From Candidatus Altarchaeum sp. (lineage in GTDB: Archaea; Altiarchaeota; Altiarchaeia; Altiarchaeales; Altiarchaeaceae): DNA of 27,346 bases. The translations under genes and the position numbers were made by a program. Position 1 is the first letter of the stretch; every line of letters begins with the position of its first letter. Of this stretch, positions 5,169 to 27,290 are shown piece by piece. The stretch covers positions 1 through 27,346 of the forward strand of contig JAGWDQ010000115.1 in NCBI GenBank assembly GCA_018260615.1. The letters are read 5' to 3'. A model generated the notes under the pieces. That model worked only from the letters and a program-made list of their open reading frames with translations. It did not search any database and was not told the DNA's origin.

Positions 5169-5219
5169 TCAGCATATCCTCGGCACCAATTTCCCGCTTG
5201 GAACATCCAAAATTCGTGT
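5169..5219 (-). pseudogene. Displaced duplicate of the last 51 bp of hypE
   Basis: 47/51 identical to 5948-5998. Reads TRILDVPSGKLVPRIC-TGA versus TRLLDVPSGKLVPRIC-TAA. Confidence 0.9.
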
Positions 5220-5301
5220 TAACCGCAACTTCAACGCCATCTCATGTATTCTTAAACATACTCTTTTAAATTTCTCTTAACGGGATGTACTTATATGTTA
5301 T

Positions 5302-5628
5302 TTAAAGATGTAACATTTCTTTTATCATCTCATTTATTTTTTCCATCGTTTCGTCTTCAAGCACACCAACAATGTTTTTTATTTTCTTCTTATCAATGGC
5401 CCGCATTTGAAAGACCAACGCTATGGATCTTGAATTTAAGCCATTCTTTATTGATGGCTTAACATCTATTGTATGTAGAAATCGCAACGCCTGAACATTG
5501 GATGTAAAAGGAATAATTATAACAATTTCTGCATCCACTTCTGATAAGACAATTGCCGGCCTCATCCCGACTTGTTCATGACCGCCAGATGCCGGAATTT
5601 CAACAAGTACTATTGCACCCTTTTTCAT
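5302..5628 (-). CDS. PemK/MazF-family endoribonuclease toxin
   Basis: KGAIVLV...GHEQ-G-RPAIVLS...IIPFTS...Q-RAIDK is the PemK family pattern. Confidence 0.92.
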   Translation of the reverse strand: MKKGAIVLVEIPASGGHEQVGMRPAIVLSEVDAEIVIIIPFTSNVQALRFLHTIDVKPSIKNGLNSRSIALVFQMRAIDKKKIKNIVGVLEDETMEKINEMIKEMLHL

Positions 5629-5834
5629 TTTTGTAAGGCATTCTCAAAATTATTAAGTGTTTCATCACTTAATTCATCCCATTGTTGAAACTCCTGCTTT
5701 AATTCTATCTGTTTTTGAATCATATCCAGATAAACCACAATTGCCCTTTCTATAATATTCTGCTCGTTAAATCCCAGTATGTTAGAAGCATTCTTTACTT
5801 CACTGTATGCCTCTTCCGATATTTGAACTTGCAT
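5625..5834 (-). CDS. Putative antitoxin of the PemK toxin
   Basis: 69 aa, acidic, overlaps the toxin start by 4 bp. Confidence 0.7.
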   Translation of the reverse strand: MQVQISEEAYSEVKNASNILGFNEQNIIERAIVVYLDMIQKQIELKQEFQQWDELSDETLNNFENALQK

Positions 5835-5947
5835 TTTATATGATTTTAATTGAGTTTTCCAAACATTTAAATTATAAAGATAATTAGTTGCAGGAATATA
5901 AATATTTAAAATTTAAAACATTCGTTCTTATGTTTATATGTGATTTT

Positions 5948-6946
5948 TTAACATATCCTCGGCACCAATTTCCCGCTTGGCACATCCAAAAGTCGTGTCC
6001 CTCCGATTGCCGTCTTTATAATCACTCCTTTTCCTCCAACAACCTCTCCCGATATGCCTGCATCTTCATTAAATTTTTTCAAAATTTTCACACATTTTTC
6101 TGCAAAATCTGCTTTGACGCCGCAGACAAATCTTCCCTCGCATGCAATTTCATACGGATTTAATCCGAGCAGTTCACAAACCGCCTTCACTTCCTTTTTG
6201 ACCGGAATTTTATCTTCATCCAGCACAATTCTTACCTTGCTCTTTTCAGCCATTTCATTTAGCGATGCTGCAATTCCCCCCCTTGTCGGGTCTTTCATAG
6301 CAGTAACATACTCTGAAATTTTTCTCACCTGTTCAAATATCGGAGCGCAGTCGGAGATTAAATTTGTCCTGTAATCAAACCTCTTGCTTAATAATGCAAT
6401 TCCATGCTCTCCTATTCCCCCCGAAACGATAATTTTATCGCCAACCTTCAGTCCGGAATTTGAAATCGGCCTGTTTGTGATTCCGATTCCCGCTGTATTG
6501 ATCATAATTTTGTCTATCTTTCCTTTTTCAACAACCTTTGTATCTCCTGTAACAACGGGAATTTTTGTTTCGGATGAAATTTTTCCGACTGATGAAATTA
6601 TTTTCATTAAATTTTCTTTTTCAAATCCCTCCTCAATTATCAAAGACAGGGACATTCCGAGTGGAACGGCATTCATAACGGATAAATCATTGATTGTTCC
6701 GCAAAGAGACAATTTTCCGATATCTCCTCCGGGAAAGAATATGGGGCTGACGGTATATGAGTCGGTTGTAAAAACAATATTTTTAAAATTTAAATTGCTT
6801 AAATTTAGCGTTGCTCCGTCATCATCAGTATTTTTCCAGTGGGATTTAAATTTGGATTTTCTGCCTGTTCTGTTTAATTCAGTTCTTATTTTTTTAATTA
6901 ATTCATACATTGCTTTTCCGCCGGAACCATTATCAAGGGTTATCAT
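5948..6946 (-). CDS. hypE: Hydrogenase maturation carbamoyl dehydratase HypE
   Basis: GSGGK, DDGA, FTTDSYTV-PIFFPGGDIGKL, GDTKVV, DPTRGG, EIACEG and C-terminal PRIC. ATG at 6946 (MITLDNGSGG) preferred over 7012. Confidence 0.97.
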   Translation of the reverse strand: MITLDNGSGGKAMYELIKKIRTELNRTGRKSKFKSHWKNTDDDGATLNLSNLNFKNIVFTTDSYTVSPIFFPGGDIGKLSLCGTINDLSVMNAVPLGMSLSLIIEEGFEKENLMKIISSVGKISSETKIPVVTGDTKVVEKGKIDKIMINTAGIGITNRPISNSGLKVGDKIIVSGGIGEHGIALLSKRFDYRTNLISDCAPIFEQVRKISEYVTAMKDPTRGGIAASLNEMAEKSKVRIVLDEDKIPVKKEVKAVCELLGLNPYEIACEGRFVCGVKADFAEKCVKILKKFNEDAGISGEVVGGKGVIIKTAIGGTRLLDVPSGKLVPRIC

Positions 6947-7080
6947 TTTAAAGATTGTATTCTGCTTTTTTGTAATTTTGTAAAATACTTGATTTATAAA
7001 TTTAAAAAACATTTAAATGTCCCGGAAGAAATTTTGTCCAAATGAGCAAGGATAAAAAACTTTGCTGATACGCTCTATTA

Positions 7081-24815: not shown

Positions 24816-24910
24816 TTTTAAAATCGCAGTTTTAAAATCGCAGAGATTTAAAAATCTCCGAGCGTAAGCGAGGTGAAGATTTTAAAATCTCCGAGCAACA
24901 GCGAGGTGAT
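24816..24910. repeat. Cluster of short REP-like repeats
   Basis: ttttaaaatcgcag twice, then two approx. 33 bp units gatttt/aaaaatctccgagc-N3-gcgaggtga. Confidence 0.65.
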
Positions 24911-24995
24911 TTTTTCTTTTTTTATCGTACAGCCCATATTTCCGACTCAAAATAAAAACCTGCGTCAAAAAGGGGTCCAATTTTTAAAGTCGGGA

Positions 24996-26907
24996 CTATT
25001 GACTACCTCCACCAATTTTAATTAACTTAAGATATTTATTAGTAATTAGACATTCACATTTAAATAATTTGAGTAAATCAATTATGTTATCCGATATCAT
25101 GTTAGGATCAATAATCTTTTTTCCAGCATGTTTTGTACCTTTCACCTCTATATCCCCAATTTCATACCTCTTTAGTTTTTCGTATGCTTTATGCGTGCTG
25201 GTAATATCTTCAATATCGTATTCTCTGAGTTTATTTGTGACAGTGACATTCAATAGATAAGAAAGAACACATATTGTGTAGTGCGCTCTAACATGTGTGG
25301 GTGTCCATACACGAAATGGATGGACATTTATGAAGGATTTAACATTCTTAAATGCTTCTTCTACTTGGTTTTTATCCCTGTACGATGAAATTAATTTTGC
25401 TGCTGTAAACCCATTAATGTCGTCCTCTTTTGAACAAATGTTTGTAATAATTGCCCACAAACCATCAGTTCTTTCCGCTTTCTTTATATTTTCTTTTACT
25501 TTATCGGTATTGGTTAGTATATCTATATGAAAACTTTTTACCTCTTTGCCATCCACATTTACAACGGTAGGTTTAAGTTCATAATCAACAAATTTTACCA
25601 CCTTCATTTTTTCAAGGTTTTTATCAATTCTATCTCTCACCTTTGTTTCATTTCTGCTCTTTTTTGGCTTCAATAATGCGTTATTTTCCTCTTCAAGATA
25701 TTCCTTTGCCTTTTGTATCAACTCATTGCGAGATTTTCTTTCACCTGTAAACATCGTAGGGTTGAATACTAAAACACATCGTCTGCCCTCAATCATTCCA
25801 AAGTCACTATGGTATGTTTCGTCATCATATTTTTCAAATCCCATTTTTGTTATTTGCTCAAGCATGTTTTCCTCAGTAAGTATTTCAAACCTTTCTATAT
25901 TATAGTGAAACTGCTAACTTTTGATATTAATGCTGAACACACTATCATTAAATCAAAGTATCAAAAGTTGAAAGATTGACTATAATGCCTTTTATGTTTG
26001 GAATTTGATCCTTATCCAATGCAGTAATATAAAAATATTTTTGATTTTCGAGATATTTGAGATTGGCGTCAGAAACCATCCCTCTATCAAACACTAATAT
26101 CATTTCACCATCACCAATTTTGAATTGGTCTTTCCACTTGATTGACAGCCCTTTTATTGTCTTGACATCAGCAGTATAATTTTCAATTATATCCCATGCA
26201 AAAGGATATCCATTTGAGTTTATAAGAAGTGAAAGAACTATTTTCTTTTTTCTAAACCCATTGTTCTTTGTTATTCCTGAATTTGCCAATTCACATTTTC
26301 TTCCCTCAAAATAAGAATCAGTAAGATCATAAAAAACAATTCTGAAGCTATCTTTATCTCTTTCTTTTAGCGTTTTGTAGAGGTATTTTTCTATGTCTTT
26401 CTTGCATTTTTCAATTTCATCGAGTTCGTCCAATAATCTCGTTTTACTGACGTGGCTTCCATCAATACTTAAAATAACATCTAATGCTGTTGATTTAAAC
26501 CAACTCACTGCGGAAAGATAACTCCCTGGATCTAAACAACGATAAATTGTCAGCATTTTAGCAATTTTTGATGTTGAAATAAACTTACCTTTGCCATCGG
26601 ACCGCATCTCGGATGTTGGAAATAACTCTGACAACCCCCACTGATCCCACAAATTACTCATAAATGCAACATCTAAATAACGCCAATGATTTTTGAATAT
26701 TATATCTCTAAACGTTGTTACAAAAGCATCCGGGGATTTTATGACTTTTAACACAGCACGTACTTGTTGTACTTGTAATGGTGTCAATTTACCAATACGA
26801 AATAATATTCTCTTTGTAGGATTTCCTTTGTTCCAATCAGATTCAGCAATGCTGTAATAATTATAAGATATTCCGTTCTTTTTCCGTGGCTGGGGATATA
26901 AATGCAT
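24996..26907 (-). pseudogene. IS1634-family DDE transposase interrupted by a MITE (609 aa when reconstructed)
   Basis: YDLTDSYFEG, FDRGMVS and Y-x2-K-x2-VEEAFK-x2-KS DDE motifs, RAHYTICVLSY. Two ORF-track pieces rejoin in frame (IKGINIERF) when 82 bp are removed. Confidence 0.9.
25903..25982. mobile_element. 80 bp MITE with TA target duplication
   Basis: Ends including the TA: tatagtgaaactgctaacttttgata versus reverse complement tatagtcaatctttcaacttttgata, 21/26 identical. TA at 25901-25902 and 25983-25984. Confidence 0.85.
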
Positions 26908-27130
26908 TTTGTTCGGGACTATTTATATATTAGGAATACTTATATAAAAAGCACATAAATTTTTGAAAAAATCGGGACTATGGAATTTATAAAAAAGACA
27001 TGTCTAAAAAATATGATATAGGAGAAACACTATATTTAAGCAATATTTTAGCTTAATTACCTTCAAAACTAATTATTAATTATATAATTCAGTCGGAAAT
27101 ATGGGGTACAGGAAAGTTCGTTTTATTATC

Positions 27131-27194
27131 CTCACACGGAGACACCAAGACACAAAGGAGAAATATACTCTGTGACTTTGTGGCTTTGTGTGAG
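27131..27194. repeat. Intergenic hairpin element (empty form of the hypF insert)
   Basis: 27 bp stem (21 Watson-Crick pairs, 2 G-T, 4 mismatches) with a 10 nt loop. Arms match 2601-2627 and 2895-2921. Confidence 0.85.
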
Positions 27195-27224
27195 CATTTT
27201 TTAAAAGAAAAAAGTTCGCAGTCA

Positions 27225-27290
27225 GACATTCCGCTTTCAGCAAATGCACTTTTAGAAAAATTTAAAACCCGCAGGTAAATTTCTTTTATG
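27225..27290 (+). pseudogene. Diverged duplicate of the cbiO 3' end and downstream bases
   Basis: 55/66 identical to 24715-24780. Reads DIPLSANALLEKFKTRR-stop versus DIPLSMDAFLEKFKTCW-stop, with the stop at the same position. Confidence 0.85.

Follow-up and report, generated by a model that had tools for sequence, protein, structure and literature searches.

In the genome of Ca. Altiarchaeum, a groundwater archaeon, DNA has been added repeatedly at the ends of hydrogenase-maturation and transporter genes, and each addition has left a spare gene end. These scars of recombination are real, very frequent, and of a type known in bacteria; they do not represent a new mobile-element system. The window, the 27,346-nucleotide stretch analyzed here, is an entire contig of a MAG of 148 contigs assembled with 55-nt overlaps. 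It consists of a conserved hyp/[NiFe]-hydrogenase backbone with accessory DNA gathered at nearly every gene junction (Table 1). Four of the accessory blocks are flanked by duplicated gene ends. Blocks 1 to 3 fit the acquisition of accessory DNA together with a duplicated gene end without a recombinase, and may have been imported from related strains under the guidance of homology. Block 4 does not fit this description.

An earlier, sequence-only reading had reported four direct repeats in the window, formed by the ends of hypE, hypC-hypD, and cbiO (twice). All four were found at the positions and identities that it gave, with BLAST E-values of 6e-11 to 2e-169, and each is low-copy in the genome. 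The DNA between the repeat copies amounts to 0.73, ~6.9, 1.6, and 2.4 kb in blocks 1, 2, 3, and 4, respectively. The cargo borders contain no shared site. One intact gene and one orphan generally remain at each repeat, except that hypC was duplicated whole, leaving two intact genes. Matching empty sites with a single gene end and no cargo were found in the relatives G001 and G002. In G001, hypF, hypE, and hypD are contiguous, and the only cbiO overlaps a convergent gene by 27 nt. In G002, hypC immediately adjoins hydS. The orphans in the window are contiguous with their native neighbor and native regulatory DNA. Relative to these sister species of the same genus, the duplication-flanked blocks are true insertions.

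Table 1. Coordinates of backbone genes, repeat copies, and accessory DNA in the window.
Feature	Coordinates	Strand	Remarks
cbiQ/EcfT-type gene, 3' end	1-203	+	contig start
PIN-domain toxin and small upstream ORF	275-842	-	no flanking duplication
hypF	870-3485	-	backbone gene
Accessory block	3613-5165	-	169-aa ORF, hairpin repeats, HicA/HicB; no clear flanking duplication
Dispersed hairpin repeats	4226-4474		within 3613-5165
HicA/HicB pair	4514-4959		within 3613-5165
Orphan hypE end, last 16 codons and stop	5169-5219	-	47/51 identical to 5948-5998
Decayed hypF fragment, codons 24-46	5222-5285	-	~82% identical; 1-nt indel; stops in all frames
Block 1 cargo: MazF/PemK toxin (5302-5628), small upstream ORF	5302-5834	-	missing in G001
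Intact hypE	5948-7012	-	5948-5998 is block 1 repeat copy 2
N4/N6 DNA methylase	7081-7965	-	in 7081-8988 block
R.HinP1I-type endonuclease	7895-8758	-	in 7081-8988 block
MITE, 232 bp	8757-8988	-	15-nt inverted ends; at least 6 further copies
Intact hypD	9055-10089		
Block 2 repeat copy 1: hypD codons 1-33, whole hypC (10102-10317), ~70 nt upstream	9990-10389	-	
Block 2 cargo, ~6.8 kb	10390-17191	+	1392-aa CARDB-domain protein, two small lipoprotein-like ORFs, 508-aa HEAT-repeat protein; missing in G002
Block 2 repeat copy 2: orphan hypD codons 1-33, second intact hypC (17304-17519), upstream sequence	17192-17581	-	
[NiFe] hydrogenase small and large subunits, HycI protease, hypB, hypA	17675-22035	+ except hypA (-)	backbone
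Orphan cbiO 5' end	22041-22326	+	native promoter region, native ATG at 22082, as in G001
Block 3 cargo: three ORFs (272, 123, 67 aa), new upstream region of intact cbiO	22327-23952	-	missing in G001
Intact cbiO-like ABC-transporter ATPase gene	23953-24768	+	repeats: 23962-24188 (block 3), 24715-24780 (block 4)
Hairpin-repeat array, left half	24781-24932	.	dispersed families, at least 42 copies; ends in TACAG (24928-24932)
IS1634-family insertion sequence, 2174 bp	24933-27106	-	15-nt inverted ends; TACAG (5 bp) duplicated on both sides
Hairpin-repeat array, right half	27107-27224	.	family with at least 89 copies
Second cbiO 3' copy	27225-27290	+	55/66 identical (83%) to 24715-24780; G001 and G003 match copy and downstream flank

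In block 1, the four differences between the orphan and intact hypE ends all preserve coding (I/L, synonymous Val and Cys changes, and TAA/TGA). The MazEF cargo displays 79% nucleotide identity with a copy in a different family (G030:C34). Since a decayed hypF piece adjoins MazEF, this cargo probably once lay in a hypE-hypF context. The hypF piece abuts the hypE orphan in reversed gene order, and this join is the signature of a duplication or of a circle junction. It also matches exactly the novel joint that a tandem duplication from within hypE to within hypF would create, MazEF having taken the place of part of the first copy. Spontaneous short tandem duplications across gene junctions might have come first, accessory DNA landing in the redundant, disposable zone and addiction modules (toxin-antitoxin, R-M) stabilizing a duplication that would otherwise be unstable. 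The genome contains 32 near-tandem pairs with less than 150 nt between copies, and several cargos are toxin-antitoxin modules. However, most repeats stop at the stop codon with the cargo directly after it and no interleaved remnants of both neighbors, orphans are no more diverged than intact copies, and blocks 2 and 3 are devoid of addiction genes. This order of events appears rather improbable.

The block 2 repeat (17192-17519 versus 9990-10317) contains two mismatches, both in the 100-nt hypD part, the hypC copies being identical (216/216). Weaker similarity extends ~70 nt further upstream, to 10389 and 17581. Copy 1 is contiguous with intact hypD and its upstream flank is G001-like to ~10481; the sequence upstream of the second hypC runs into a G002-like intergenic region before hydS. 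One hypC copy therefore has a G001-type and the other a G002-type upstream region, and the repeat stops where the two architectures part. The repeat holds a 300-nt identical core, suggesting that gene conversion operates. In the cargo, the gene for the CARDB-domain protein has a 5' leader and a signal peptide in common with genes on contigs C66, C2, and C53. G001 harbors a HEAT-gene/hypD-hypC orphan junction of its own. The hypC orphan of G001 resembles the G001 allele and is decaying, as expected of an in-situ copy or of concerted evolution, and this counts against homology-guided import.

The block 3 repeat (22100-22326 versus 23962-24188; 218/227 identical, 96%) contains a 135-nt identical core. 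It begins at about codon 5 and thus lacks the native start; the intact cbiO is preceded by foreign sequence and starts at a new ATG. The orphan is homologous to the intact copy over approximately codons 5 to 82 and reads on as a 97-aa ORF. No family match was found for the three ORFs of the cargo, which has paralogues on contig C139 (52% and 43% amino-acid identity).

Block 4 had been taken for a 2.4-kb cargo delivered by homology. It proved to be an ordinary IS, with its own inverted ends and 5-bp duplication, in a hairpin-repeat array that is uninterrupted at G000:C18:3387-3630. The IS1634-family DDE transposase is encoded by two ORFs (25948-26907 and 24996-25865; NCBIfam score above the cut-off) and is broken by a 90-nt small repeat at ~25896-25986. 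The 66-nt duplication flanks the hairpin array and spans the overlapping ends of two convergent genes; its second copy includes the functional 3' end of the convergent gene, which continues on contig C148 (stop at 27252-27254). This duplication belongs to the array, not to the IS nested inside, which would have jumped into the array when the 66-nt duplication already flanked it. The claim that the window contains no integrase or recombinase consequently holds for tyrosine and serine recombinases, which were found neither with Pfam in all main ORFs nor with NCBIfam and PHROGs in unannotated ORFs, but not for this transposase.

The gene-end duplications extend throughout the genome, which contains 165 low-copy local direct repeats, including 65 clean orphan/intact pairs. 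Twenty-five pairs are located at 5' ends and 40 at 3' ends (median length of 104 nt, 92% identity, 1.9 kb apart). The density of local repeats is 8.5 per 100 kb, versus 1.6 in a control genome of another family. Of the 40 3' pairs, 27 had their repeat end between -20 and +10 nt relative to the stop codon, versus 11 expected for a terminus placed anywhere in the repeat (11/16 versus 4.4 at an identity of at least 93%). This clustering rules out random staggered cuts. The 528 differences between copies were distributed over codon positions 1, 2, and 3 as 27/19/54%, with 5 new stops. Neutral in-situ decay of the orphans predicts 30/28/42% and 14.5 stops, and functional orthologues give 22/15/63%. 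Within the window, changes relative to G001 and G002 were no more numerous on orphan branches (18) than on intact branches (23). The third-position bias, the few stops, and orphan branches that are not longer rule out free in-situ decay. The divergence looks allelic, as proposed from the window, where the repeats contain no indels or stops; the description of the mismatches as mostly synonymous was overstated (19 synonymous versus 20 non-synonymous codon differences).

Could the scars be remnants of site-specific integrative elements that targeted gene ends, brought a replacement end, and no longer have their integrases? The layout agrees, with an intact gene followed by the insert and an orphan end, and the repeat ending at the gene terminus. 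Phage 21 and e14 integrate in icd, carrying a replacement gene end. However, none of the blocks encodes an integrase, the window lacks tRNA genes, the repeats vary in length between 40 and 580 nt, the targets are dozens of genes at both 5' and 3' ends, and the cargo can be as small as one toxin-antitoxin pair. Such an origin is extremely unlikely.

Eighteen pairs flank only 54-136-nt non-coding inserts. These are gene-end duplications of the same type, with edges a few nt from start or stop codons, and the third-position bias is present there too. The bias may therefore stem from gene conversion or later allelic exchange and not from insertion itself; by these routes, an allelic signature can also follow in-situ duplication. 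The short inserts argue for enzyme-driven insertion with long target duplications of variable length and one cut at a gene boundary. Small hairpin elements would use this mechanism, which would occasionally carry genes, and the initially identical copies would later gain allele-like differences by gene conversion and strain recombination. The block 4 duplication, which encloses hairpin repeats and the later IS only, and the gene conversion evident in hypC are in agreement with this mechanism. The IS1634 family, present here, is common in Euryarchaeota, and two of its members make unexplained duplications of 8-514 bp (De Palmenaer et al., 2008; PMC2266710). The block 4 element has the transposase, 15-nt inverted ends, 5-bp duplication, and size (~2.2 kb) of the family. 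Unlike these two members, it made a normal 5-bp duplication, and its transposase gene is broken; the assembly contains only two such genes. Furthermore, no multi-copy element or common motif occurs at the borders of blocks 1 to 3, the native start and promoter lie outside the cbiO 5' repeat, a gap that simple target duplication would leave unrepaired, and the hypF piece next to MazEF and the two hypC upstream haplotypes indicate donor loci rather than a free cassette. We regard enzyme-driven insertion as possible, if unlikely.

For blocks 1 to 3, we infer a recombination route, donors, and an order of events at roughly even confidence: homology-guided import from related strains, by a one-sided event of the type seen in homology-facilitated illegitimate recombination (HFIR) or by a Campbell-type crossover. 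Donor strains would already have had the cargo beside the same gene. One end of the incoming DNA would pair with the gene as an anchor and the other would join illegitimately slightly inside the recipient's copy; a Campbell-type crossover of a circle bearing the gene end would be equivalent. The outcome would be an intact hybrid gene abutting the cargo, with the recipient's gene end displaced downstream as an orphan beside its native neighbor. Where genes abut or overlap, deleting joins would be lost and gene-end-duplicating joins would survive in the compact genome. If both flanks were able to pair, no duplication would arise, and the three accessory blocks without duplication (PIN, HicAB, and R-M) are expected of such a two-armed exchange. 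The copies may later exchange sequence by gene conversion, as in the hypC core, and the cargo may be deleted. The continuity of the orphans, the dual hypC upstream types, the hypF piece, and the allelic divergence fit homology-guided import. Against it, both copies are equally distant from G001, outgroups do not mark either as foreign, no population variants were found that could reveal a circle, an empty-site junction, or a phased allele, and we know of no natural DNA uptake in this uncultured archaeon. The single-crossover or homology-facilitated integration proposed earlier for all four blocks is partly supported and is retained in this form for blocks 1 to 3, but neither for block 4 nor as a crossover in short repeats. 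Repeats of 51-66 nt with 83-92% identity make a single crossover mechanistically unlikely, and the Campbell version breaks down for them; recombination from one side, with its anchor in the longer body of the gene, is the better fit.

Some duplications or differences may not reside on one chromosome if the contig is a mixture of strain variants or if a separate circle was threaded through a collapsed repeat. The fragmentation and 55-nt overlaps of the MAG count in favor of such errors. Other contigs contain unmerged 55-nt overlaps around N runs and 100%-identical re-used repeat nodes, phasing across the identical hypC and cbiO 5' cores relied on read pairs, and the contig start forks from contig C113. 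However, the window contains no N, the cargo-to-orphan junctions are unique sequences that real DNA must contain, the same pattern is seen in pairs below 93% identity, which have hardly any 55-mers in common, and the orphan junction of G001 was assembled independently. An assembly artifact is therefore very unlikely.

The proposal of a new, integrase-free mode of accretion does not stand, similar scars having been published for bacteria. Two published phenomena come closest: insertion with long target duplication and Rhs C-terminal displacement. R-M units insert with long, variable target duplications in bacteria (Nobusato et al., 2000; Furuta, Abe and Kobayashi, 2010, PMC2853133), and no archaeal case passed in the survey of these events (PMC2853133). 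As in these insertions, accessory genes are missing in the sister genome, direct repeats of more than 30 bp correspond to one copy at the empty site, no other mobility gene is present, and the repeats, tens to hundreds of bp long, often overlap the 3' end of a gene. In contrast, the cargo here comprises toxin-antitoxin, surface-protein, or unknown genes, the R-M unit of the window is not flanked by a duplication, 5' as well as 3' ends are involved, and the scars are far denser (at least 65 pairs in 2.2 Mb). In Rhs C-terminal displacement (2009, PMC2935791), incoming DNA likewise brings a new gene end and cargo without an integrase, and the old end becomes a downstream orphan. The route proposed for rhs, recombination of a circle with the conserved portion of the gene (PMC2935791), is the model of the sequence-only reading. 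However, the tips displaced in rhs are toxin ends that differ in function and come with immunity genes, all in a single gene family, whereas here ordinary housekeeping genes are involved, their 5' ends included, and the duplicated ends are almost identical alleles. The proposed route would share with HFIR in naturally transformable bacteria (PMC3240628), in which transformation also forms merodiploids (PMC3784515), the integration of foreign DNA that pairs homologously at one end and joins illegitimately at the other. HFIR-type joining implies variable repeat length, an orphan of recipient sequence, and no need for a recombinase. HFIR is known from experiments in bacteria, not in archaea, and the products reported from bacteria are mostly insertion-deletions.

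Among the blocks without duplication, the PIN-toxin block separates cbiQ from hypF, two genes with a 4-nt overlap in G001. The HicAB portion is 89% identical to another, non-equivalent locus of G002 (C199). The R-M/MITE block (7081-8988), which has no flanking duplication, is missing from the hypE-hypD interval of G001. Within hypF, seven hairpin-repeat units of 51 nt each form an in-frame array (~2573-2935) that is missing in G001 and G002. Finally, the first 203 nt of the contig have a second copy at G000:C113:7856-8058 (92% identical), the initial 55 nt being identical and forming the assembly fork point; this pair is possibly a fifth gene-end duplication masked by the contig break.

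All four direct repeats reported by the sequence-only reading were present on contig C115, with the coordinates and identities that it had assigned, and each was low-copy in the genome. This contig (27,346 bases in its entirety) belongs to assembly G000, which comprises 148 contigs (2.23 Mb, 33% GC, 87% complete). The closest public relatives of the HypE protein (92% identity) were found in two metagenome-assembled genomes named Candidatus Altiarchaeales/Altarchaeum (G002 and G001), which are sister species within the same genus. The organism is therefore an uncultured archaeon from groundwater, belonging to the Altiarchaeum group. 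The nearest relatives of HypE beyond Altiarchaeales (loci L012 to L028, 50–55% identity) were nearly all from Candidate Phyla Radiation bacteria (Moranbacteria/Parcubacteria) and not from archaea.

Organization of contig C115, in map order. Indented rows are contained in the preceding feature.
Order	Feature	Strand	Positions
1	cbiQ 3' end	+	1–204
2	PIN toxin pair	-	
3	hypF	-	
	 hairpin-repeat array in hypF	-	2573–2935
4	169-aa ORF, hairpin repeats, and HicAB	-	
5	hypE 3' orphan		
6	MazEF (block 1)	-	
7	hypE	-	
8	DNA methylase and R.HinP1I-type endonuclease	-	7081–8758
9	MITE		8757–8988
10	hypD, hypC	-	
11	Four genes: 1392-aa CARDB protein, two small ORFs, HEAT-repeat protein (block 2)	+	
	 leader and first 30–34 codons of the CARDB protein gene		10547–10813
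12	hypD 5' fragment and second hypC	-	
13	Hydrogenase small and large subunits, HycI, hypB (+); hypA (-)	+/-	
14	cbiO 5' fragment		
15	Three ORFs of no known family (block 3)	-	
16	cbiO	+	
17	Two ORFs (block 4)	-	
	 IS1634-family element		24933–27106
	 dispersed repeat splitting the transposase gene		25896–25986
18	cbiO 3' fragment		

Direct repeats bracketing the four blocks.
Block	Repeat	Length	Identity	Distance between copies
1	hypE 3' end	51 nt	47/51	0.73 kb
2	hypD 5' end and hypC	about 330–400 nt	2 mismatches in about 330 nt	6.9 kb
3	cbiO 5' end	227 nt	218/227	1.6 kb
4	cbiO 3' end	66 nt	55/66	2.4 kb

Cargo-free alleles retaining a single gene end, sought in relatives, were observed in the two sister species, G001 lacking blocks 1, 3, and 4 and G002 lacking block 2. 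The repeat sequences are single-copy in these genomes, and the flanks of the inserts align on both sides. In G001, cbiQ, hypF, hypE, and hypD are contiguous, and a single cbiO adjoins hypA and overlaps a convergent gene by 27 nt. In G002, hypD and hypC directly adjoin hydS. For all four blocks, the orphan (the spare gene-end fragment) was located beyond the cargo and the complete gene abutted it. In block 2, hypC is duplicated whole.

Searches for tyrosine and serine recombinases, performed with Pfam for all main ORFs and with NCBIfam and PHROGs for the unannotated ORFs, were negative. The claimed absence of any recombinase from the window is nevertheless wrong, since block 4 encodes an IS1634-family DDE transposase. 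These searches revealed no integrase gene in the inserts, as would be expected for a site-specific integrative element located at a gene end (e14/icd type). No common or multi-copy sequence was found at the borders of the first three blocks, which thus lack the shared recombination site of an integron-like cassette array. The 11-nt motif AATTCTCTTAC, detected where block 2 ends on the right and, in inverted orientation, also in the G001 insert, occurs at a chance-level frequency in the window.

The two ORFs of block 4 correspond to the N- and C-terminal parts of the transposase (NF033559 profile positions 2–241 and 275–479; 125.5 and 106.3 bits for a cut-off of 100). Inverted ends of 15 nt are located at 24933 and 27091, and TACAG is present on either side of the element. 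A hairpin-repeat array is located between the 66-nt copies, and an IS-free version of this array, providing the exact target, is present on contig C18. Thus, the IS jumped into the array with a normal 5-bp duplication. The DDE transposase scoring above the cut-off, the terminal inverted repeats, and the 5-bp target duplication are as in the IS1634 family (5–6 bp), whose features have been described together with unexplained 8–514-bp duplications for IS1634 and IS1549 (De Palmenaer et al., PMC2266710). The transposase gene is itself split by a 90-nt dispersed repeat, 100% identical to C61:7402–7491 and 98% identical to a copy on C109, revealing a three-level nesting of a repeat in an IS, in an array, in a gene-end duplication. 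Block 4 is an ordinary IS inside a hairpin-repeat array and had to be withdrawn from the list of homology-delivered cargo. The IS1634-family transposase was rejected as the source of the long duplications of the window, since this IS is flanked by a 5-bp duplication of its own and only two such genes are present in the assembly.

Hairpin repeats were also found within hypF, where about seven 51-nt units of a dispersed repeat (at least 186 genomic matches) form an in-frame array. The protein thereby gains about 121 residues separating its zinc-finger domain from its YrdC domain, and the ORF remains open. The 17-residue unit is FPYFKISRFLKIESLTD; the hypF genes of G001 and G002 do not contain the array.

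The junctions of the individual events were informative. The cbiO 3' orphan includes the true 3' end of the convergent gene, which continues on contig C148 (stop at 27252). The 66-nt repeat thus spans exactly the region in which two gene ends overlap, with small margins, and both convergent genes remain whole. At the other end of cbiO, the orphan retains the native start codon and promoter region, as found in G001. The DNA upstream from the intact cbiO is unrelated, its ATG is new, and homology to the orphan begins at about codon 5. Immediately before the hypE orphan, in the gene sense, lies a decayed piece of hypF (codons 24–46, with an indel and stops). This order is opposite to the natural one, indicating a duplication or a circle joint. 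The MazEF genes of block 1 displayed 79% DNA identity to positions 5096–5632 of locus L008 (G030:C34), from a genome of another family within the class, and this similarity suggests a recent horizontal transfer of the cassette.

For hypC, the upstream flank of the left copy is homologous to the region upstream from hypC in G001 well beyond the edge of the repeat, and that of the right copy is G002-like, leading to hydS. The repeat edge approximately coincides with the point of divergence of these two upstream architectures. The two G000 copies are identical in their central 300 nt and differ at their edges only, pointing to gene conversion from one copy to the other. A separate orphan is present in G001 beside a HEAT-repeat gene, consisting of 27 nt of hypD, a 130-nt insert, and half of hypC; its edges differ from those of the G000 orphan, and it carries two deletions of 4 nt and bases specific to G001. 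In G002, an almost perfect palindrome of about 110 nt, absent from G000, is inserted in the hypC-hydS spacer (locus L003, G002:C113, about 2400–2700). Neither the HypD protein nor a conserved hypC word of 26 nt yielded a match in metagenome scans. Within block 2, the leader and first codons of the CARDB protein gene, encoding the signal peptide, are 91–100% identical to three other gene starts (C66:480–875, C2:4846–5262, and C53:36332–36551). Since the leader is common and the gene bodies differ, it looks like a swappable 5' module of surface-protein genes.

Self-comparison of the whole G000 genome identified 165 low-copy local direct repeats. Pairs were retained if one copy occupied an ORF end (ORFs of 100 aa or more) and its partner had no equivalent ORF. 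Scaffolding artefacts consisting of 55-nt overlaps around runs of N, which are absent from the window, were excluded. Contigs C72, C79, C94, C99, C104, C114, and C126 contain such exact 55-nt repeats, with a spacing of 155 nt around gaps of 100 N, as well as repeat nodes that are 100% identical and were used twice; these artefacts inflate a naive repeat census. The duplicated gene ends were found to recur, with 65 orphan/intact pairs remaining after filtering (25 at 5' ends and 40 at 3' ends; medians of 104 nt, 92% identity, and 1.9 kb between copies). The orphan lay beyond the cargo in 61 of the 65 pairs. The density of repeats per 100 kb was 8.5 in the long contigs of G000 versus 1.6 in a control genome from another family, and values of 3.2 and 2.1 were obtained for the short contigs of G000 and a sample of G001 consisting mostly of short contigs, respectively.

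A crude count of repeats containing a gene end (98/165) was not much over chance and was replaced by a test based on the distance between repeat edges and stop codons. The repeat ended between positions -20 and +10 nt relative to the stop codon in 27 of the 40 3' pairs, for 11 expected if the terminus could be anywhere in the repeat. The corresponding values for 3' pairs with at least 93% identity were 11 of 16 and 4.4. Beyond the repeat edge, identity drops to background. Staggered cuts at random positions were rejected. Cutting by an enzyme at gene boundaries, generating long duplications, is possible. [quoted passage not shown] The general edge pattern does not fit a tandem duplication followed by landing of the cargo, although this scenario accounts for the hypF-hypE joint.

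Differences between copies. Model: neutral in situ decay of the orphan, with the gene constrained.
Comparison	Codon positions 1/2/3 (%)	New stops
Observed (65 pairs, 528 differences)	27/19/54	5
Model	30/28/42	14.5 ± 3.9
Functional G000/G001 orthologues	22/15/63	not applicable

The free decay of a local copy was rejected and the differences are allele-like, as proposed for alleles of related strains, although gene conversion or later exchange provides an alternative. Duplications around tiny non-coding inserts displayed the same third-position bias (57% of 49 differences), indicating that gene conversion or later allelic exchange could produce this bias after duplication in situ. Third-position bias is therefore weakened as a proof of foreign origin. 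In the window, branch sums relative to G001 and G002 were of 18 changes for the orphans and 23 for the intact copies. Polarization by G001 and G002 did not designate a foreign copy since both copies are equidistant from these outgroups.

We propose that blocks 1 to 3 were added by homology-guided recombination, and the data fit import from related strains already carrying the cargo beside the same gene. Incoming DNA would pair within the gene and an illegitimate join would form slightly inside the gene of the recipient. Alternatively, a circle carrying a gene end would cross over. Between abutting or overlapping genes, only joins that duplicate an end would be harmless. Since a crossover within 51–66 nt at 83–92% identity is unlikely, we prefer, for the short repeats, one-sided recombination with the gene body as its anchor; homology-facilitated illegitimate recombination of this type has been defined previously (PMC3240628). 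Thus, the observation made by the sequence-only reading is real and its interpretation, addition of cargo by single crossover or homology-facilitated integration, is partly right: homology-guided import fits the data, but crossover is unlikely for the short repeats and block 4 is an IS.

The pattern is a dense archaeal variant of an already known recombination scar. Insertion with long target duplication has been defined for bacterial restriction-modification (R-M) units, mostly in naturally competent species, and no archaeal case passed the screen (Furuta et al., PMC2853133). As in these cases, relatives have empty sites, the repeats exceed 30 bp and are single-copy in the empty genome, and no mobile element or mobility gene was found in blocks 1 to 3. 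In contrast, block 4 carries an IS1634-family element and hairpin repeats, and the duplicated blocks contain no R and M genes. The displaced orphan past the cargo and the intact gene abutting it are as in the Campbell-type, circular-intermediate model proposed for rhs (Jackson et al., PMC2935791). If recombination is homology-guided, a compact archaeal genome could keep acquiring genes for defence, toxin-antitoxin, and surface functions at the junctions of essential genes that abut or overlap; these essential genes would stay intact and no integrase would be needed. In that case, the spare gene ends would be both a record of past strain exchange and built-in arms for later excision. The process has so far rested on few bacterial R-M and rhs examples, to which the census adds testable numbers: at least 65 pairs in 2.2 Mb (about a fifth of this rate in the control), involvement of both 5' and 3' ends, and clustering of edges at stop codons.

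The 3' end of cbiQ at the start of the contig is a second copy, 92% identical to C113:7856–8059 of the same assembly. The contig starts inside this copy, whose first 55 nt are identical to C113, an assembly fork point. In G001, cbiQ abuts hypF; in G000, the complete cbiQ is on C113, followed by other genes. This duplication may be a fifth, much larger insertion bracketed by gene ends, or a strain polymorphism.

Three further blocks, the PIN pair, the 169-aa ORF with HicAB, and the methylase and endonuclease genes with the MITE, are absent from G001 and have no clear flanking duplication, as would result from a two-armed exchange. The R-M unit of the window (M/R.HinP1I) is thus among the insertions without flanking duplication, and the duplicated blocks carry other genes. 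The segment following the stop codon of the hypE orphan (5090–5168) has a weak similarity (about 70% over 35 nt) to the conserved hypE-hypF spacer (3590–3625), which could be a worn short duplication around the HicAB block, although it is too weak to call. The 232-bp MITE located between the endonuclease gene and hypD has 15-nt inverted ends (AAAAGTTTCCCATTT), and copies with 92–100% identity are present on contigs C22, C137, C90, C64, C44, and C18.
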